A stretch of 64,000 bases of DNA from Escherichia phage vB_EcoM-UFV11. Within the stretch, counting starts at the first letter, position 1. Each line of letters opens with the position of its first letter. Below are positions 2,459 to 41,014 of the stretch, piece after piece. Where the stretch lies: sequence record OP555982.1; one strand, written 5' to 3'. The notes under the pieces are model-generated. The model was not told where the DNA came from. It saw only the letters and a program-made list of their open reading frames with translations, and made no database searches. The position numbers and the translations under genes are program-made.

Positions 2459-4274
2459 ACTGGCTCATCCATTCTTTACGAAGGTCAGCATTATCTCCCA
2501 TGAGCATTTCAAAAAGCTCTTTCCAATTCTCAGGAAGTTTAACAACATCATATACTGGGTTTTGAATCATCTCACGATATTCAGATTTTTCCAAAGAGCC
2601 AAGTCCTTTAATATAACGGATGCTATGTTTAGGTAGAGCATCTTTGGCACTCTCATATTCAGCGACTGTATAAAACCATTCTTGTTTTTTACCGACCTGA
2701 GCGATGATTACAGGAGTTTTGACAAAGCGAATTCGTCCTTGCTCAAACAATTCTGGCCAATTACTAAAAAATCCGAGCAGAGAAGGATAAATGCTTCCTA
2801 AACCATCATGGTCAGCATCGGTCATAATAGCAATATTATGATAATTCAAGTTTTCAGCTTTTTCACCAAGAACTAATCCAGTGATTGCGCAAATATCAAA
2901 CAGTTCTTTGTTTTTAAGCATATCAGCATATGACATACCCCAGCTATTAAGAACTTTACCACGCAATGGATAACCACCGTGAAGTTCTTTATCACGAACA
3001 TCAATAAGATATCCGATAGCAGAATCACCCTCAGTCAAGAAAAGAGTAGTGTCAGCATCTTTACCACAAAGATTCGCTTTGATATGTTTATGAACCTTAG
3101 CTTTAGAAGCCTTTTTAGCTGCTTTAGTTTCTGCTGCTTTTTCTGCCGCCAATTTACGAGCAAGGGCAGCTTCAATGATTGGCATTAAAATTGCTTCATT
3201 ATTTAGAATAGCGCGTGAAATCTTTTTAGCATCAAGTTGAATATGACTACGAATTTCGCCAAATGGAGAAGTCAAACGCTCTTTAGTTTGAGAATCAAAT
3301 CGCATGTTTTTCATATCACGGACAAACATAACGATAGTCAAACATTCTTTGACACGTGCTTTAGTCACATCAATTTTGAACTTACGTTTGATTTGTGGAA
3401 TAAGGTCTTCACAAATATCATCCATAACACAGTCAATGTGATGGCCACCATTCTTAGTGTGAATGTTATTCACATAAGTTAATTGACGAAATCCATCCGG
3501 TGAACGACCAACAGCAATAGAACAATTTTCTTGTTCTTGAACAATAGCATGTTCATCATACTGTCGTGCATATTTCTTAAAATTGCCCTGAACCTTTTTA
3601 CCATTAAAGGTAAATTGAATATCAGGATAAACAACAGCAAGTGTCTGGAGACGATCTAGTGTAATGTCAAGATAAACTTGGGACAGCTCATTAGTTTCAA
3701 ATGACATAAAATCTGGAATGAAAGTAACACGAGTTCCTTTCCATTTTCCAGGAATAGTTTCCCAGGATTTATTTTCCATGCCATTTGAACAACGAACTAC
3801 AATATTATTTTGACCATCGCCAGTTTCACCGACAAACATCACAGAAAAAATGTTAGTTAAACTAGAACCAACACCATTCATACCACCGGTGACGCGTTCT
3901 TTATCATCACCAAAGTTACCACCCGCTTTTGGAATAGTCCATGCAGCAACAGGACCAGGAATTTCTTCACCGGTAGGTGTTTTAACCATCGCTTGCGGAA
4001 TACCGCGACCGTTATCTTCAACTGTCACCTGATTATTTTTAATGGTAACATTAATTTTATTCGCGAATTTAAACTTAGTACGAATACCTTCATCGACTGA
4101 GTTATCGATAATTTCATCAATAAGCTTAACAAGACCAGGTACATACTGAACACTTTCCCATTTACCAAACAGAAAGCGCTCATGCATTTCATTAGCAGAA
4201 GAGCCAATGTACATGCCACTACGCTTTTTGATATGTTCAATATCGCTCAGAATTTTAATTTCATTCTTAATCAT
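2457..4274 (-). CDS. 39: DNA topoisomerase II large subunit, uninterrupted gene 39 form (605 aa)
   Basis: 606-codon ORF; first in-frame codon is GTG, ATG at 4272-4274 with SD GAGGA 6 nt upstream; N-term MIKNEIKILSDIEHIKKRSGMYIGS; GyrB-like motifs. Confidence 0.9.
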   Translation of the reverse strand: MIKNEIKILSDIEHIKKRSGMYIGSSANEMHERFLFGKWESVQYVPGLVKLIDEIIDNSVDEGIRTKFKFANKINVTIKNNQVTVEDNGRGIPQAMVKTPTGEEIPGPVAAWTIPKAGGNFGDDKERVTGGMNGVGSSLTNIFSVMFVGETGDGQNNIVVRCSNGMENKSWETIPGKWKGTRVTFIPDFMSFETNELSQVYLDITLDRLQTLAVVYPDIQFTFNGKKVQGNFKKYARQYDEHAIVQEQENCSIAVGRSPDGFRQLTYVNNIHTKNGGHHIDCVMDDICEDLIPQIKRKFKIDVTKARVKECLTIVMFVRDMKNMRFDSQTKERLTSPFGEIRSHIQLDAKKISRAILNNEAILMPIIEAALARKLAAEKAAETKAAKKASKAKVHKHIKANLCGKDADTTLFLTEGDSAIGYLIDVRDKELHGGYPLRGKVLNSWGMSYADMLKNKELFDICAITGLVLGEKAENLNYHNIAIMTDADHDGLGSIYPSLLGFFSNWPELFEQGRIRFVKTPVIIAQVGKKQEWFYTVAEYESAKDALPKHSIRYIKGLGSLEKSEYREMIQNPVYDVVKLPENWKELFEMLMGDNADLRKEWMSQ

Positions 4275-9188: not shown

Positions 9189-10508
9189 TCACACATAAAA
9201 TACGTCATAACGACCACGGGTAACACCAACATAAAGAAGTTGTTGAGCCAATTCAGCATCTGCATAATGAATACAAGGCGTATAAATGAAAGCACGGTCT
9301 ACAGACATACCCTGAGCTTTATGGAATGTTGATGCAGGAAGTGCTTTCACTTTACTAAACTGTGATTTAGCATCCCAAAAATCACTCCATGGAGCTTTTC
9401 CGCCTTTGTTCCAATTTTTATAAGTTTCTGCCGTTTTACCTAAAAATAAGTTAAACTTATACAGCTCTTCATCAGATGAAATTATTTTAATCTTTTCACG
9501 ATAATATTCATCATCGCCGTAAGTTTCTACTGTTAAATCCCAATGACGAATTAGATATTCTCCAGGAACACCACGAGCTTTAACAAATGTTGATGTATAT
9601 TCTGCTTCTATAATACGAACTAATTGTCCGTTATTAAAAATAATTTCTGACACAGGCTTTCCATCAATTTTATATGTTTTAATTAATGGTTCCTGCATTA
9701 CAATAATTTCACCGACAATAAAATCTTTATCAGTTTCAAAAATCTTTTTACGAATAATGCTATTTAACTTGTCAACAGATTTATTCGTAAATGCCATTAC
9801 GCGATTTTCAAACAAATCATCTAGTGATTTGACGATTGAAAAATAATTTACCATAAAATCGCGTAAAGCGGTATCACCAGTAAATCCACGTACTCCATGC
9901 CCGTCAACAACTTTATCATAAATCCACTTACCGTTGCGAACATCAGTAGCTACATCAATAATAGGAGCATTACTGCGTTTAACTTCAGTGAGTTCACACT
10001 GATAAAAATCTTTGTGTGTAAAAAATGGACTGATATAAGCAGTGTTTTCTCCTGGGTCAACAGGTCTAATTTGCTTATTATCACCTATTCCAATTATAGT
10101 ACACCACGGCGGGATAGTTGAAAGCAGAATTTTAAATAGCTTTCTATCATACATTGACACTTCGTCGCAGATTAATACCCTGCATTTAGCTAAATCTGGT
10201 ACTTCCTTCTGTTCAAAAAGAACGTTTTCTTCATATGTTACGGGGTTAATTTTAAGAATACTGTGAATAGTACTCGCTTCTTTCCCCGACAGTTTTGAAA
10301 GAATCTTTTTAGCTGCATGTGTAGGAGCTGCCAAAATGATACCAGTTTCGCCCGTAGATATTAAAGCTTCAATGATGAACTTAGTAAGAGTAGTCTTACC
10401 AGTACCAGCAGGTCCATTAATAGTTACATGATGTTTCTTTTCTTTAATAGCCCTCATAACGATGTTAAAGGCATTTTTCTGACCTTCGGTCAAATCATCA
10501 AATGTCAT
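9189..10508 (-). CDS. dda: Dda DNA helicase (439 aa, SF1)
   Basis: 439-aa ORF; Walker A GPAGTGKTT; matches recalled T4 Dda sequence. Confidence 0.95.
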   Translation of the reverse strand: MTFDDLTEGQKNAFNIVMRAIKEKKHHVTINGPAGTGKTTLTKFIIEALISTGETGIILAAPTHAAKKILSKLSGKEASTIHSILKINPVTYEENVLFEQKEVPDLAKCRVLICDEVSMYDRKLFKILLSTIPPWCTIIGIGDNKQIRPVDPGENTAYISPFFTHKDFYQCELTEVKRSNAPIIDVATDVRNGKWIYDKVVDGHGVRGFTGDTALRDFMVNYFSIVKSLDDLFENRVMAFTNKSVDKLNSIIRKKIFETDKDFIVGEIIVMQEPLIKTYKIDGKPVSEIIFNNGQLVRIIEAEYTSTFVKARGVPGEYLIRHWDLTVETYGDDEYYREKIKIISSDEELYKFNLFLGKTAETYKNWNKGGKAPWSDFWDAKSQFSKVKALPASTFHKAQGMSVDRAFIYTPCIHYADAELAQQLLYVGVTRGRYDVFYV

Positions 10509-16126: not shown

Positions 16127-16327
16127 ATGGTACAAAAATTAATGGCACTTGTTAATGCCATCAAAGGTAATAAGAAACGTATAGCTTTTACTATTTCTGC
16201 TATGGTAGGAATTTTACTCTGGAACTTTATTTTATCACCAATTGCAATTGCGCATGGTGTTAATATTCCAGTAGTTACTCTTGATACATTCGTAGATCTA
16301 GCATTTGCTTTAGTTGGGTTGATTTAA
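16127..16327 (+). CDS. hypothetical small membrane protein (plus strand)
   Basis: 66-aa hydrophobic ORF; strong SD AAGGAGG 5 nt before ATG; between 56 and 61. Confidence 0.5.
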   Translation: MVQKLMALVNAIKGNKKRIAFTISAMVGILLWNFILSPIAIAHGVNIPVVTLDTFVDLAFALVGLI

Positions 16328-17352
16328 ATCTTAGCATATTTAGATAGCCGCATTTTAGCCATCAACCCCTGGGCAATATTATTTTTCATATATTCCATAA
16401 TTTGTTCAGGGGTTGCACCTTCCTTTCTAATCATATCATTAACATCTTTAGATTTCCAGGGAGATTTATCCCAAAACATAACCCTTTCTCCTGCATCAAC
16501 TAATTTAGTCATTCGTTTGATAGTGTCAGGGTGACGAGGTTCATTATCTAAAACCCACACTCGTCTATCTTTAAATGGAACAATTTCTAGGTCTAATTGA
16601 CCACCCGTAATAGCTATACCATTTTCAATAAAAAGTGAATCTATAGGTCCTTCTAGAACATATACATCGCCATCTTTAACTCGTTCGACTCCATAGATTT
16701 TTGTTGCCTCAGGATAAGCTTTAATGGTGATATATTTTTGAGGAGCATTTTTCTTTAATGCACGCCCTTGAAACGACTCGGCTTTTCCGTTAGCATTATA
16801 AATTGGAATAACAAGACGAGGCTCAGGTATTTCCTTTTTATATGTTCCCGGTGCTATGCTATTAACCAATTTAGGCCATTCGGTTGTAAACCAAAGATAT
16901 TTCCATTTATCCTTTGGAATACAACGAGCTTTTACGTATTTTATAATTGGATGGTCTTCCGCCAGTTTATCTAATCTAACACATGACGGAAGAGATTTAA
17001 TTATTTTCTTCTCAGGTTGTTTAGGAAGTTCTTTAGGTTTTTCTACTGGACGACTTTTACCTTTTTCTTTTCTTATTTCAAAGATATACTCACGATATAA
17101 ATCAGGTTCAAACTCCTTTAAATATATTCCGATTGGTGCGTGATAGTTACAGTTATAACAATGAATATTTCCTTCATTATTATCACCATAATACCATCCA
17201 CGAGCTTTATTCTGGTCGGTTTTTGAATCTCCACAAACGGGGCATCTAAACCGCAATTTAAAAGTTGAACTATTATTTACTTGTGTGAATTTAGGTAAAT
17301 GAGCCAATGCACGATACGCAAACTCATTATCAATCCAAGGTATTGATGACAT
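16324..17352 (-). CDS. 61: DNA primase gp61 (342 aa)
   Basis: 342-aa ORF; zinc-ribbon CPVCGDSK...CYNCNYH and TOPRIM-like region. Confidence 0.93.
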   Translation of the reverse strand: MSSIPWIDNEFAYRALAHLPKFTQVNNSSTFKLRFRCPVCGDSKTDQNKARGWYYGDNNEGNIHCYNCNYHAPIGIYLKEFEPDLYREYIFEIRKEKGKSRPVEKPKELPKQPEKKIIKSLPSCVRLDKLAEDHPIIKYVKARCIPKDKWKYLWFTTEWPKLVNSIAPGTYKKEIPEPRLVIPIYNANGKAESFQGRALKKNAPQKYITIKAYPEATKIYGVERVKDGDVYVLEGPIDSLFIENGIAITGGQLDLEIVPFKDRRVWVLDNEPRHPDTIKRMTKLVDAGERVMFWDKSPWKSKDVNDMIRKEGATPEQIMEYMKNNIAQGLMAKMRLSKYAKI

Positions 17353-30858: not shown

Positions 30859-30913
30859 GTAATTTCCTTCAATTCAAATGAGATTTAATTTTATAACTAA
30901 TTTAATAAAGCAA

Positions 30914-31303
30914 TTAACGATTAAAATCAGCCGCAATTGTTTCCACAACAATTTGAGCAGCAACAATTAGACGTTCATCTGCATTACCACAATAATCATC
31001 TTCAAGGCGTTCACCGCATGAAGTCATAATAAATTTAGCACCGGCGTTTAGGGATTCTGTAGTATGTTTGCGCATTAGTTCAATCCATTTATTACTTACT
31101 TCACGATCGATAGCTTCATAATACGCATGACGAGCAGGTGCAGATTTAATTTTGTTCTGAATAACTTCCATTGCGTTATCAGAAAGAGACAAAACCCATG
31201 CTCGACGAATTTTATTTTGGTTTTGTGGATTTGATTCAGAACGCACGTGTTTTGGCTGAATATCTTTTACGTCAACAGTATAATTCACAGTAATTTTAGT
31301 CAT
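30914..31303 (-). CDS. rpbA: RNA polymerase binding protein RpbA-like (129 aa)
   Basis: 129-aa ORF directly upstream of 45. Confidence 0.6.
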
Positions 31304-31312
31304 AATACACCT

Positions 31313-31504
31313 TTAGTCATAATAATCAGTAACAGTCCAAGCTTCATTTCTATTGGACATTATTTTTGTATATTCTGCTTTAAATGCATTCCTAAGCATA
31401 GATTCAGTAACTATATGCTCTTCATTAGAAAAATTATTTCTCAGAATATATCGTTTTATTTCAGGAATAGTTAATAGATGCTGTCCAGTTGAATATTCTG
31501 CCAC
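31313..31504 (-). CDS. hypothetical protein
   Basis: 63-aa ORF. Confidence 0.5.
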   Translation of the reverse strand: MAEYSTGQHLLTIPEIKRYILRNNFSNEEHIVTESMLRNAFKAEYTKIMSNRNEAWTVTDYYD

Positions 31505-31514
31505 AGTTCCTCCG

Positions 31515-31522
31515 TATAAATA
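31515..31522 (+). promoter_or_regulatory. T4 late promoter TATAAATA (plus strand)
   Basis: exact TATAAATA ~34 nt upstream of HNH gene ATG. Confidence 0.5.
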
Positions 31523-31555
31523 TGTTTATCACTCGCTGTATCAAAAGGATATGTT

Positions 31556-32272
31556 ATGAATTATAAACTAATTTATGAAAAGTTAATCTCTAATGCTAAA
31601 TCTCGAAAACTTGATTGCTATACTGAATCTCATCACATTATACCGCGCTGTTTAAATGGAAGTGATGATGCTTCAAACTTAGTAGATTTAACACCAGAAG
31701 AGCACTATGTAGCTCATCAACTTTTAGTAAAAATTTATCCTTCTGAACCAAAATTAGTCTATGCTGCTAACATGATGACAGTTTCTACGAAATACGCTAA
31801 ACGCAACAATAAAACTTTCGGTTGGATTCGTCGTAAACTCTGGGAAATAGAAAAGAACAAAGAATTCTCCCAGGAGACACGAAAGAAAATGTCTGATGCA
31901 GTAGCTAATAAAGCAAGATTAACTTGTCCTCATTGCGGTAAGTCTGGATTAAGCGGAAATATGAATCGTTGGCATTTTGATAACTGCCCAAATCACCCTA
32001 ATCCTAAAATTAGACCACCAATGTCTAAAGAACACAGAAATAATATCTCAAACGGGCTTAAAGCAATCGTTCTTGAAGAAACATCCTGCGAATTCTGCGG
32101 AATGATAGGCAAGAAATGCGTTATCGCAGCGCATAGAAATTTCTGCAAGAAAAATCCAAATGGACGCAAGAAAACTGAAAAGACTGGTACTTGCGTCCAT
32201 TGTGGTAAAGTTACCACTTTCGGAAATTTATCAAGATGGCATAATGATAACTGTAAATATAAACTTAGCTAA
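31556..32272 (+). CDS. HNH homing endonuclease with three C-terminal Cys-His zinc-finger repeats
   Basis: 238-aa plus-strand ORF; HNH motif ESHHIIPRCLNGSDDASNLVDLTPEEHYVAH; three CxxCGK...RWHxDNC repeats. Confidence 0.8.
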   Translation: MNYKLIYEKLISNAKSRKLDCYTESHHIIPRCLNGSDDASNLVDLTPEEHYVAHQLLVKIYPSEPKLVYAANMMTVSTKYAKRNNKTFGWIRRKLWEIEKNKEFSQETRKKMSDAVANKARLTCPHCGKSGLSGNMNRWHFDNCPNHPNPKIRPPMSKEHRNNISNGLKAIVLEETSCEFCGMIGKKCVIAAHRNFCKKNPNGRKKTEKTGTCVHCGKVTTFGNLSRWHNDNCKYKLS

Positions 32273-33953
32273 TCTTAGCTAAACTAAATCTACCAACTTT
32301 TTCCATCTGAATATGCTGACCATATTCTTGTGGGTCATGGTCTTTATGTGAAATTATGAAGAAGTTGGTATCCTTCAAACCATCTAAAATTTTAGCTACA
32401 TTTTTAATACCTTCAGCATCAAATGCACCGTCATACACTTCATCAAGAAATAAACAACTTATTTTAACACCTGAAACTTTTTCAGCAATATCACGCCAAG
32501 TAAATAAAAGAGCAATATCAATTCGCGCTTTTTCACCTTGACTGAATGAAGCATAACTAAAATCTTCACGACCACGGGATTTAATTGTCTCATTAAATTC
32601 TTCATCTAATGTAAACACATAATCCGCTTCCATTATTTTAAGATAATGGTTAATCTGCTTATTAAATAATGGAATGTACTTTTTAATAATAGCACCTTTA
32701 ATACCAGAATCTTTGAGCATATCAGTCAAAATTCCTCGGTGGTATTTTTCCATTACTAAATTAGTTTTTGTCTTAACAATTTTATCAAGTTCTTCTTGAA
32801 GCAGTGCTATTTCATCAGCATGGTCAATAAACTCAGAAGATGCTTTTTCTATAGCCGCTTTAACCTTTTTAGCTTTATCTACTGCTGCGATCAGAGATTG
32901 CTTTTTATTGCGAATATCATTTGCCAACGACTGCTGGGTTTTAATATTATCTCGGTATTCATCAACAAGAACTTTTAAATTATCACGATGTGTTGAAAGA
33001 TGTTCAAACGAATGCGTGCATTCAGAAACTTTATCTTTAATTTTAGAAACAACTTTATCACCGGAACTTAATTGTGACAAACAGGTTGGACATAATCCAC
33101 CTTCGTGATACATATTAATGACTTTATTATACGAGTCAATTTTTGATTTAATTAAAACTGCTTCTTGACCGATTTTATTAAATGCATCAGTCGGGTCTTC
33201 ATCTAAAACAATATTAACTAATCTTTCATTAGCTTCTTCTATTTCCGATTTTAGCGTTCTAGCTTCTTTTGCCAAATCATCATACATATTTTGAAGACGA
33301 GTAAGGTTGTCACCCGTTAATTTTTTCTGGCGTTCAACGTTATCATTATATATTTTAATTTGTTGGATAATACTATCTTTTTTAACATCAAGCACTTGGT
33401 TTTGTGAATTTAATTCACGTATTAGTGCTTTATTAAGCTTATCCATTTCAGCTAATGTTCCTACCTCGAGCAGGTCTTCCACAAGCTTTCTTCGCGCAGG
33501 GGTCGACAAACCCATGAAAGGGGTATACCCTGCTGTACCAAGGACAACAATCTGCTTGAAACTGGCATATGACATTCCGATAAGCTGTTCAAATTCTGCT
33601 TGGAAATCTTTACTGCTGGCAGATTCATTAAGACGTGTACCGTTAACGGTGATTTCGAAAACGTTTGGTTTTTGTCCTCTTTTGATATAATACTTTTTCT
33701 CATCATATTCCATCCACAGTTCAACTAAAAGTTCTTTCTTATTTGTGCTGTTTATTAATTGACCTTTCTTTACATCACGAAATGGCTTGCCAAAAAGCCC
33801 AAATGTGATGGCTTCTAACATAGTAGACTTACCACCGCCATTTCGTCCAGTAATAAGAGTTTTTTGAACCTTATCTAATTGAATGTCAATAGGATTTCCA
33901 CCTACTGACATTATATTTTGATACCTAACTCGGTTTAGTTTAAAATTCTTCAC
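32265..33953 (-). CDS. 46: recombination endonuclease subunit gp46 (Rad50/SbcC-like)
   Basis: 562-aa ORF; Walker A GRNGGGKST, coiled coil with CPTC hook, signature SQGEKA. Confidence 0.93.
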   Translation of the reverse strand: MKNFKLNRVRYQNIMSVGGNPIDIQLDKVQKTLITGRNGGGKSTMLEAITFGLFGKPFRDVKKGQLINSTNKKELLVELWMEYDEKKYYIKRGQKPNVFEITVNGTRLNESASSKDFQAEFEQLIGMSYASFKQIVVLGTAGYTPFMGLSTPARRKLVEDLLEVGTLAEMDKLNKALIRELNSQNQVLDVKKDSIIQQIKIYNDNVERQKKLTGDNLTRLQNMYDDLAKEARTLKSEIEEANERLVNIVLDEDPTDAFNKIGQEAVLIKSKIDSYNKVINMYHEGGLCPTCLSQLSSGDKVVSKIKDKVSECTHSFEHLSTHRDNLKVLVDEYRDNIKTQQSLANDIRNKKQSLIAAVDKAKKVKAAIEKASSEFIDHADEIALLQEELDKIVKTKTNLVMEKYHRGILTDMLKDSGIKGAIIKKYIPLFNKQINHYLKIMEADYVFTLDEEFNETIKSRGREDFSYASFSQGEKARIDIALLFTWRDIAEKVSGVKISCLFLDEVYDGAFDAEGIKNVAKILDGLKDTNFFIISHKDHDPQEYGQHIQMEKVGRFSLAKIS

Positions 33954-39862: not shown

Positions 39863-40171
39863 GGAGTTTAATTTCCTTAGCAACTGAACTAAATACAGCA
39901 CGGTCACAAATCATACGTTTGTTCCATTTAATCACGGTATAATGAACATCTAAATCATCGACTGCTGTGACAATAACGATATGTCCGTTAACACGATAGT
40001 ACTGGTCAATTTTAATCTCTTTATCAACCATATCAATTCCTCAAAGGTAATTCATATGTTAATAATACCACGGTTTGAACTTGTTGTAAACAACTTTGTG
40101 AAAAATATTTTATGGAATGATAAGAAAGGAACGATAGCTTACAATGGTAATATACAGAATGTGAGAAAGAA

Positions 40172-40186
40172 GGGCCCAGAGGGCCC
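40172..40186 (-). terminator. hairpin GGGCCC-UCU-GGGCCC
   Basis: perfect 6-bp GC stem after NrdH-like gene. Confidence 0.4.
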
Positions 40187-40189
40187 GTC

Positions 40190-40513
40190 TTAGTCTTCTA
40201 TGATATCTCTATCATATCCAAGTGAAATGAGAGTTTCTTTGAAGTGTTTAATGTTCTTTTGTCTAGAATCATTAATGAAAATGACAGGATACCGAATATT
40301 AAGAGATGTGAATCCGGCGCGTTTGGCAAGAGATACAATCAGTGGACGATCATACTCAATCTTACCATTATTAGTAAGAACTTTATAGAAAGTAAAAGGA
40401 GCATTGAGCTCCTTTAGAAGTTTTGTAACTGATTGACATCCAGGACAACGACCTACTTCATCTGGAATTCCATAGACTTCAATCTTATTCTTTAAGTTCG
40501 AGTTTTGTTCCAC
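40190..40513 (-). CDS. glutaredoxin/NrdH-like redoxin (CPGC active site)
   Basis: thioredoxin-fold ORF with RCPGCQ; no in-frame ATG after upstream stop; candidate GTG start at 40513 with SD AAGGA; alternative start at 40642. Confidence 0.45.
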   Translation of the reverse strand: MEQNSNLKNKIEVYGIPDEVGRCPGCQSVTKLLKELNAPFTFYKVLTNNGKIEYDRPLIVSLAKRAGFTSLNIRYPVIFINDSRQKNIKHFKETLISLGYDRDIIED

Positions 40514-40796
40514 GAGAAATAATTCCTTGGTAAGCCCAATAAGGAGGATTAACAGAATCCTCACCAGAGTTTTCTTCAGGAAAATAAACCTGGATAACGA
40601 AGCCGGATTCATCAAAGGTGAAATAAGTAGTAGGCAGTTCACCTAACAAATCGGCACGAGCATTAATTTCTTCGAGGTCTTGTTCACGTCCAACCCAGAA
40701 GCTTGGGTTCAGACTACATTCATAGAAATAATAGTCATTACCGAACATATCAAAACCATTCCAACTCTCTACTACATACCGCTCAAAACTAATCAT
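40485..40796 (-). CDS. hypothetical protein
   Basis: 103-aa ORF. Confidence 0.5.
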   Translation of the reverse strand: MISFERYVVESWNGFDMFGNDYYFYECSLNPSFWVGREQDLEEINARADLLGELPTTYFTFDESGFVIQVYFPEENSGEDSVNPPYWAYQGIISRGTKLELKE

Positions 40797-40798
40797 AA

Positions 40799-41014
40799 TT
40801 AAGCCTTTTTATCAAGAACAGCATTCAGCTTGTTAGTAATTTTATCCAGACGCTCATTGAACTCACTAGAAGATAAGCCCTTTTCTGGAGAAATTAAACT
40901 AATAACGAAAAATACAACAATAAAAGGAATAAGGAAAATAGCTCCAACTGCCATAAACAGAAAGAATGTTACAGTTGTAAGAAAATCAGCTAAACCTTTA
41001 CGAAATTTATACAT
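40799..41014 (-). CDS. hypothetical membrane protein
   Basis: 71-aa ORF with one long hydrophobic segment. Confidence 0.5.
   Translation of the reverse strand: MYKFRKGLADFLTTVTFFLFMAVGAIFLIPFIVVFFVISLISPEKGLSSSEFNERLDKITNKLNAVLDKKA

Follow-up and report, generated by a model that had tools for sequence, protein, structure and literature searches.

Phage T4's Mob endonucleases are defined by a common N-terminal HNH domain and by C-terminal regions that are specific to each protein (PMC2790892). One of them, MobE, has been shown genetically to be a mobile HNH nicking enzyme; it nicks the non-coding strand of nrdB in phage T2, and its gene is promoterless, cotranscribed with nrdA, and provided with an internal terminator (PMC2790892). 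Here we describe a gene of this kind in a stretch of 64,000 nucleotides (nt) from Escherichia phage vB_EcoM-UFV11 (record OP555982.1), referred to below as the window. The gene is an open reading frame (ORF) of 238 codons on the plus strand (31556-32272, with its ATG at 31556 and its stop codon at 32270-32272), which lies between genes 46 and 45.2 and runs opposite to both neighbors. Judged by its sequence, the product is a Mob-family HNH endonuclease whose closest characterized relative is T4 MobE, and we consider it likely to be an active, free-standing homing endonuclease that targets the gene 46/45.2 junction. It is an ordinary and already annotated kind of element, a catalogued but uncharacterized member of a known family, set apart only by its three zinc fingers and by its recurrence at one site in several phage genera.

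The part of the window around the gene (30900-33000) is 100% identical to Escherichia phage vB_EcoM-UFV09 (MZ291552.2, Tequatrovirus; record coordinates are offset by +1), whose record labels the ORF “homing endonuclease” (QWT76980.1). The same gene is found at the same junction in RB32 and RB51 (RB32ORF054w and RB51ORF057), with proteins 98-99% identical to ours; RB32ORF054w carries the label [quoted passage not shown] and RB32 has been listed with two mob-like HNH genes (PMC2993671). The minus-strand gene order at the locus is 47, 46.2, 46.1, 46 (32265-33953), 45.2 (31313-31504), rpbA, 45, and 44.

A free-standing homing endonuclease gene is recognized by its sporadic presence between conserved genes of close relatives, and this is the pattern that we observe when the 45.2-46 junctions of related phages are compared. 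The gene is present in about 59 of 500-600 Tequatrovirus records, a figure that rests on 59 records covering at least 80% of a 2.1-kb query, 59 tblastn matches at 95% identity or more, and 58 full-length matches to a junction query; about 440 further Tequatrovirus records match only the gene-46 part of that junction query and have an empty 45.2-46 junction. T4 is among the phages with an empty site, where a spacer of 55 nt separates 45.2 from 46, and the site is likewise empty in RB69, KMB38, PhiK2046, and HK6. Outside Tequatrovirus, orthologs (42-64% identity) sit at this site and converge on gene 46 in Dhakavirus MX01, the Mosigvirus phages 348Ecol098PP and F2, the Slopekvirus phages phT4A and Lemur, the Pseudotevenvirus phages EC-F1 and leB, and Klebsiella phage Roth78, which makes five named genera plus Roth78 with the same site and orientation. 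Presence is partial in these groups as well: the gene is carried (at 80% coverage or more) by 13 of the 260 records matched by a Mosigvirus junction query and by 66 of the 149 matched by a Slopekvirus one. A scan of IMG/VR with gp46 returned only insert-less loci among enterobacterial phages, which we used as an insert-less panel, and a scan of the same database with the endonuclease alignment returned distant paralogs only. The first-pass annotation, made from the letters of the window, had proposed an insertion between conserved genes and had named universal presence at this site in relatives, with no endonuclease activity, as the finding that would speak against it; the insertion is borne out by these comparisons, and presence at the site is sporadic.

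Relative to T4, the insert is a cassette of 786 nt (31499-32284) in place of 72 nt, as delimited by local alignments: the homology on the left is perfect (299 of 299 nt) up to 31498, and that on the right restarts at 32285. These boundaries are precise and shared, and the cassette recodes the ends of both neighboring genes. The start of 45.2 (31499-31504, minus strand) consists of a GTG and an extra Ala codon, giving MAEYS where T4 has MEYS, and the extra codon is also present in the insert-bearing alleles of Mosigvirus. At the other end, gp46 receives from the cassette a new C-terminal tail (..GRFSLAKIS* versus ..GRFTVMV* in T4; 32265-32285, minus strand, including the stop overlap and a tandem duplication). 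The convergent overlap of the last codons with the 3′ end of gene 46, which had been pointed out from the sequence, spans 8 nt (32265-32272); this overlap, TTAGCTAA, is its own reverse complement, a perfect palindrome, and both convergent genes end in ..AGC TAA. It is included in a 10-nt tandem duplication (CTTAGCTAAT / CTTAGCTAAA, 32264-32283), and the duplicated, palindromic junction may be a footprint of repair. RB51 and REP2 have a different junction, with an endonuclease of 237 amino acids, an overlap of 4 nt, and a gp46 tail that reads ..GRFSVATIN*. As a separate observation, the T4 spacer between 45.2 and 46 contains a 9-bp inverted repeat, AGAGATTAT..ATAATCTCT, with a loop of 18 nt (9261-9269 and 9288-9296 of the fetched T4 locus), which is deleted in the insert-bearing phages.

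The cassette is accompanied by a diverged block of gene 46. Over 260 nt (32285-32544, minus strand), in the region that encodes the ATP-binding cassette (ABC) signature motif, Walker B, D-loop, H-loop, and C terminus of gp46, the insert-associated allele differs from T4-type alleles by about 18%; the stretch has 19 amino acid changes and, in its first 200 nt, 42 mismatches to T4, compared with 0-2 per 50 nt in the remainder of the gene. Phage records fall into two groups by their identity to this tract, a bimodal distribution with 59 records at 95% or more, none at 90-95%, and all others at or below 84%. The recoded gene ends and the diverged gene-46 flank match the co-conversion known from the free-standing endonucleases of T4 (PMC2790892; PMC2988022), with a linkage to the gene that is not absolute (KMB22, JK45, and OZ035759, considered below). 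Insert-linked polymorphism is confined to the gene-46 side, with none on the 45.2 side, and for this reason we place the putative target at the 3′ end of gene 46. Natural recombinants have their breakpoints within 70 nt of the junction. In Mosigvirus, where alleles with and without the insert agree at 97-98% of positions along gene 46, the one consistent difference besides the tail is a Leu codon (CTT vs. TTG), a synonymous change of two bases. The polymorphism hot spot comprises the gp46 codons H-(L/I)-(Q/K)-M-(K/E) (32301-32315, minus strand) and, from codon linkage in the panel, is a candidate part of the recognition or cleavage site: carriers have ATT at the variable codon in Tequatrovirus and Slopekvirus, TTA in MX01 and Roth78, and ATC in Pseudotevenvirus, and CTN is present in 24 of 33 insert-less loci versus 0 of 8 insert-bearing ones. 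In Slopekvirus, the differences between a carrier and PhiK2046 are confined to the first ~80 nt inside gene 46. The recognition or cleavage region is thus most likely the last ~50 nt of gene 46 plus the junction, and the insertion itself is probably the main source of immunity.

At the protein level, PHROG 655 (“homing endonuclease”) matches the product at E = 8.6e-69, and among the 2299 homologs found, many carry Pfam HNH or NUMOD3 (PF07460). The HNH core claimed in the first-pass annotation is present. Its catalytic residues H26, H27, N41, H50, and H54, as well as all 12 zinc ligands of the tail, are invariant in 19 orthologs of 42-99% identity, and the HNH residues are also invariant in 80 homologs. 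Two homologs pass the Pfam HNH model (25.1 and 22.4 bits). The AlphaFold2 model has a mean predicted local distance difference test (pLDDT) score of 93 and a predicted template modeling (pTM) score of 0.59, with the modules strung out; its nuclease core consists of strands 24-27 and 42-45 followed by helix 47-60, at a pLDDT of ~97. The conserved general-base His, the Asn, and the His/Asn metal ligand of HNH endonucleases and their beta-beta-alpha core are accordingly all found in the predicted beta-beta-alpha-metal nuclease domain, which covers residues 1-100 (31556-31855).

The tail is modular. In the model, the HNH core is followed by helix 106-117, finger 1, helix 158-170, finger 2, and finger 3, each finger being a beta-hairpin plus a helix, and a model of the tail alone reproduces the same picture. 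The two helices are NUMOD3-like; the first (FSQETRKKMSDAVAN, 31862-31906) scores below threshold with Pfam NUMOD3, and the motif of the second (MSKEHRNNISNGLKA, 32021-32065) was read from the sequence. The three predicted zinc fingers are CPHCGKSGLSGNMNRWHFDNC (31925-31987; C124, C127, H140, and C144), CEFCGMIGKKCVIAAHRNFC (32087-32146; C178, C181, H193, and C197), and CVHCGKVTTFGNLSRWHNDNC (32192-32254; C213, C216, H229, and C233), the last of which is common to T4 MobE and has ligands that are invariant in 80 homologs. The description of the tail as three repeats of CxxCGK...RWHxDNC needs a correction here, as it fits fingers 1 and 3, which are identical to each other at 13 of 21 positions, and does not fit finger 2, which is a divergent C-x2-C-x11-H-x3-C; the spacing is thus x12 in fingers 1 and 3 and x11 in finger 2, compared with C-x2-4-C-x12-H-x3-5-(H/C) in classical C2H2-like fingers, with a beta-beta-alpha fold that is predicted by the model. 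No Pfam zinc-finger model scored above threshold for this protein or the homologs examined, a PDB sequence search with the protein gave no match, and NCBIfam gave only a weak match to the HNH region of IscB (23 bits vs. a cut-off of 175 bits). The CCHC finger of the RWHFDNC type is uncurated, with no Pfam model passed, and very common in viral HNH endonucleases: scanning IMG/VR for the peptide pattern RWHFDNC / RWH[FN][DN]NC matched at least 600 stretches of viral contigs, 450 of them encoding relatives.

Where in the protein would target choice reside? The HNH domain alone (the N-terminal 94-106 residues) is 58-69% identical to that of endonucleases at other sites that have different tails, for example one beside the “DNA end protector” gene, as would be expected if the tail were the part that selects the target. 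Within the tail, the helix motif N..RWH.DNC of the fingers is common to paralogs at different sites, and the finger helix is therefore probably not what determines sequence specificity. The number of fingers varies: among the best 120 homologs, 86 have one, 7 have two, and 25 have three, and the three-finger proteins are essentially the gene-46-associated clade. One could imagine that the three CCHC beta-beta-alpha fingers form a modular base-reading array, that the clade is a natural “zinc-finger nuclease” directed to conserved sequence within the Rad50-like gene 46, and that finger number (one, two, or three) is an evolutionary knob by which Mob endonucleases are retargeted, although we regard this as a speculative and rather doubtful proposal.

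With its common HNH domain and variable C-terminal DNA-binding region, the protein has the features by which the Mob family is defined, and its resemblance to MobE extends over the full length (34% identity; 30-36% across comparisons). The two share the HNH domain, MNY..IY..L...A......Y.E.HHIIPRC.GGSDD..NLV.LT..EH..AH, as well as NUMOD3-type helices and a C-terminal CCHC finger, CPHCGK...N..RWH.D.C, with MobE ending in CPHCGKKVNKGNALRWHYDKC. Both genes are free-standing and sporadic, and MobE likewise has its target in a neighboring essential gene (PMC2790892). They differ in that a translation of the nrdA-nrdB spacer shows MobE with three NUMOD3-like repeats and a single finger, whereas our protein has two such helices and three fingers. 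MobE also points the same way as nrdA and lacks a promoter, whereas the present gene is antisense to its neighbors and has its own predicted late promoter, and the sites are nrdA/nrdB in one case and gene 46/45.2 in the other. More distant systems offer partial parallels. I-HmuI, the intron-encoded HNH nicking endonuclease of Bacillus phage SPO1 (PMC2790892), combines an HNH domain with a modular DNA-binding region in a similarly extended two-part design; however, it is intron-encoded, lacks a zinc-finger array, and has no significant sequence or fold match to our protein. I-TevI, a phage homing endonuclease of the GIY-YIG type, also carries a zinc finger within its DNA-binding portion (PMC2988022), but it has just one, which serves as a distance determinant. 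Eukaryotic C2H2 arrays share the C-x2-C-x12-H-x3-C spacing and the predicted beta-beta-alpha fold, and the top Foldseek matches are the C2H2 arrays of CTCF, TFIIIA, and ZFP568, at non-significant values (E >= 0.013). Unlike in these arrays, however, the fingers here are 15-33 residues apart, without short canonical linkers, and the sharing of the finger helix by paralogs at other sites argues against base-specific reading by that helix.

The gene also appears to have its own expression signals. The first-pass annotation had reported an exact late-promoter sequence upstream, and the octamer TATAAATA, the −10 element by which T4 late genes are recognized, does indeed stand at 31515-31522 on the coding strand, 41 nt before the ATG; its promoter function is putative. 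A Shine-Dalgarno sequence, AAGGA (31545-31549), was read 6 nt before the ATG. The bare count of TATAAATA is not above chance. It occurs three times in the 64 kb (15387, 31515, and 57385) compared with 10.6 ± 3.0 times in shuffled sequences, all 100 of which had at least three copies, and it is depleted rather than enriched in this early-gene region. The relevance of the element comes instead from its position and conservation. The copy at 31515 is the sole plus-strand copy in the 64 kb, and a chance match in a 60-nt upstream window would be expected with a frequency of ~0.005 from the shuffle density. The same octamer is found 41, 44, and 53 nt upstream of the orthologs in Tequatrovirus, Dhakavirus, and Mosigvirus, respectively, and versions with one mismatch, CTTAAATA / CCTAAATA, precede the Slopekvirus and Pseudotevenvirus orthologs. 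Downstream of the promoter, the leader GCTGTATCAAA followed by AAGGA is kept in the first three of these genera. We infer from these features that the gene is expressed late.

Other forms of control known from related endonucleases found no support at this locus. A hairpin sequestering the ribosome-binding site, as in mobE and I-TevI, was considered and rejected, as the fold of 31480-31580 is no better than that of shuffles (z = −0.8) and the pairing is not kept in Mosigvirus. An autorepressor operator, in which the promoter region would resemble the T4 target region as is the case for I-TevI, fared no better, its best ungapped matches being equaled by 68-98% of shuffles. We found no terminator inside the insert or immediately behind it, whichever strand was considered, the closest terminator-like site on the plus strand being at 32887, and early or middle read-through from 46 into 45.2 is accordingly not obviously blocked.

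Taken together, these data suggest a homing cycle of the following kind. Late in infection, the gene's TATAAATA promoter would drive its transcription, against the direction of the early and middle genes around it. The product would be an HNH nuclease at the N terminus joined to a long DNA-binding tail made up of two NUMOD3-like helices and three CCHC fingers. When a co-infecting phage lacks the gene, the enzyme would bind that phage's gene 46 at the 3′ end, where 46 meets 45.2, and make a nick or a cut there, and recombinational repair from an insert-bearing genome would copy the whole cassette, i.e., the promoter, the gene, the new gp46 tail, and the recoded 45.2 start, into the broken genome, often along with a variable stretch of the donor's gene 46. 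The carrier genome would be protected, with the insertion and nearby substitutions destroying the site. Late expression and DNA cleavage are proposals drawn from sequence comparisons, as are the target position and the homing process.

Several observations weigh against an active homing endonuclease with this target. Our literature search found no paper that names or tests the gene, nor one showing cleavage, nicking, or homing by it. The protein scores below the Pfam cut-offs for both HNH (16.9 vs. 21.4 bits) and NUMOD3 (PF07460; 12.6 vs. 20.4 bits). An invading endonuclease gene that lies opposite to its neighbors can create antisense transcripts (PMC2988022), and here, with no terminator after the endonuclease gene, late transcripts would run antisense into gene 46. 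Exceptions to the linkage between the gene and its flank concern the target in particular. Escherichia phage vB-Eco-KMB22 (OR539217.1; 2431-2750 of the fetched locus) lacks the gene and has a T4-type spacer, T4-type last ~50 nt of gene 46, and a CTC codon at the hot spot, followed by the insert-type tract from the equivalent of ~32331 onward (2 differences in ~215 nt), and is thus a natural recombinant. A strict linkage of the tract to the gene (59 vs. 59 records) is ruled out by this phage, which has most of the tract without the gene. Shigella phage JK45 has an empty junction with the insert-type TTG, and the Mosigvirus mar005p1 assembly (OZ035759.1) has a different endonuclease allele (59% identical to our protein) together with the empty-site-type CTT, such that all four combinations of gene and hot-spot codon exist. 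The idea that the Leu codon change (CTT to TTG or ATT) is the immunity determinant is weakened by these two phages.

A domesticated function could likewise account for strong purifying selection and for a site that is fixed in many genera. Purifying selection on the protein is indeed strong, the ratio of nonsynonymous to synonymous polymorphism (pN/pS) being 0.03-0.14 in five within-genus pairs. These values, the use of one site and one orientation by at least five genera, the retention of the late promoter and 5′ untranslated region, and the altered C terminus of gp46 are what one might expect of an HNH/zinc-finger protein that has come to serve the phage and is kept for regulation, with the gp46/gp47 nuclease, late DNA processing, and transcription near gene 46 as examples of what it might modulate. 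We nevertheless find such a role quite improbable, given that the gene is absent from ~90% of Tequatrovirus records, including T4, with flanks that are otherwise near-identical (299 of 299 nt on the left). It is therefore dispensable; in addition, presence and absence differ by a clean cassette swap, and the endonuclease family is large, modular, and site-hopping. The same low pN/pS, far below 1, argues against a decaying or inactive remnant that hitch-hikes with gene 46 or is mobilized in trans by another endonuclease, as described for I-TevIII and MobE. Defunct endonucleases are known in T4 (PMC2790892), and the sub-threshold Pfam HNH score would suit one, but no ortholog examined has lost any of the catalytic residues or zinc ligands and the ORF is full length in all loci fetched, which makes a remnant very improbable indeed.

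A different possibility is that the enzyme serves mainly in competition between phages, cutting gene 46 of competitors in a form of marker exclusion whose main benefit is damage to rivals, with copying of the gene as a by-product. The target would then lie in an important gene for recombination and host-DNA degradation, a diverged gene-46 tract travels with the gene, and the partial conversions without the gene in KMB22 and JK45 resemble the localized marker exclusion of the SegG type (PMC2993671; PMC2988022). However, exclusion would use the same enzyme and repair pathway as homing, so that sequence data do not separate the two, and it is the gene itself that is sporadically distributed; we hold competition to be an unlikely main function. 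Homing by a free-standing endonuclease, which was the interpretation of the first-pass annotation, is the account supported by the combination of sporadic presence, a Mob-family match, intact residues, purifying selection, a kept late promoter, and recoded flanks.

With this locus, the T4 Mob endonucleases, among which MobE alone has been studied, gain a well-defined member that appears to be active and that comes with a concrete target hypothesis, namely the last ~50 nt of gene 46 plus the junction. Natural positive and negative substrates are at hand in the empty sites of T4, RB69, and PhiK2046 and in the carriers UFV09, RB32, and 348Ecol098PP. The element appears to rewrite the ends of two host genes and to move a 260-nt block of a recombination gene between phages, which matters for mosaicism among T4-like phages used in therapy. 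The step from one finger to three illustrates neatly how DNA-binding tails evolve by modules. Our current understanding of homing endonucleases is unchanged by this; what is new are the cassette boundaries, the conservation of the site across genera, the evidence that the protein is under selection, the gene-46 block that travels with the gene, and a bounded target hypothesis.

A few further features of the window and of related loci deserve mention. The endonuclease gene had been described as one of only two credible plus-strand genes in the 64 kb, but the deposited annotation has four plus-strand CDSs (coding sequences); the other three, at 16128-16328 (66 amino acids), 40057-40194 (45 amino acids), and 40681-40803 (40 amino acids), are all “hypothetical protein” in the UFV09 record, and the rest of the 64 kb is all on the minus strand. 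Gene 46 starts at an internal ATG in the UFV09 record (record position 33912), and the GTG of the T4 annotation is kept at 33953, which would give a protein of 562 amino acids (the interval concerned being 33912-33953 of the window). Gene 46 has a second small patch of divergence from T4 at its 5′ end, distant from the insert (33885-33934), with 12 mismatches in 50 nt and alterations to gp46 residues 10-21. In Escherichia phage F2, a second CDS labeled “HNH endonuclease” lies directly upstream of gene 46 (3490-3901 of the fetched locus), and gene 46 of that phage is thus flanked by endonuclease genes on both sides.

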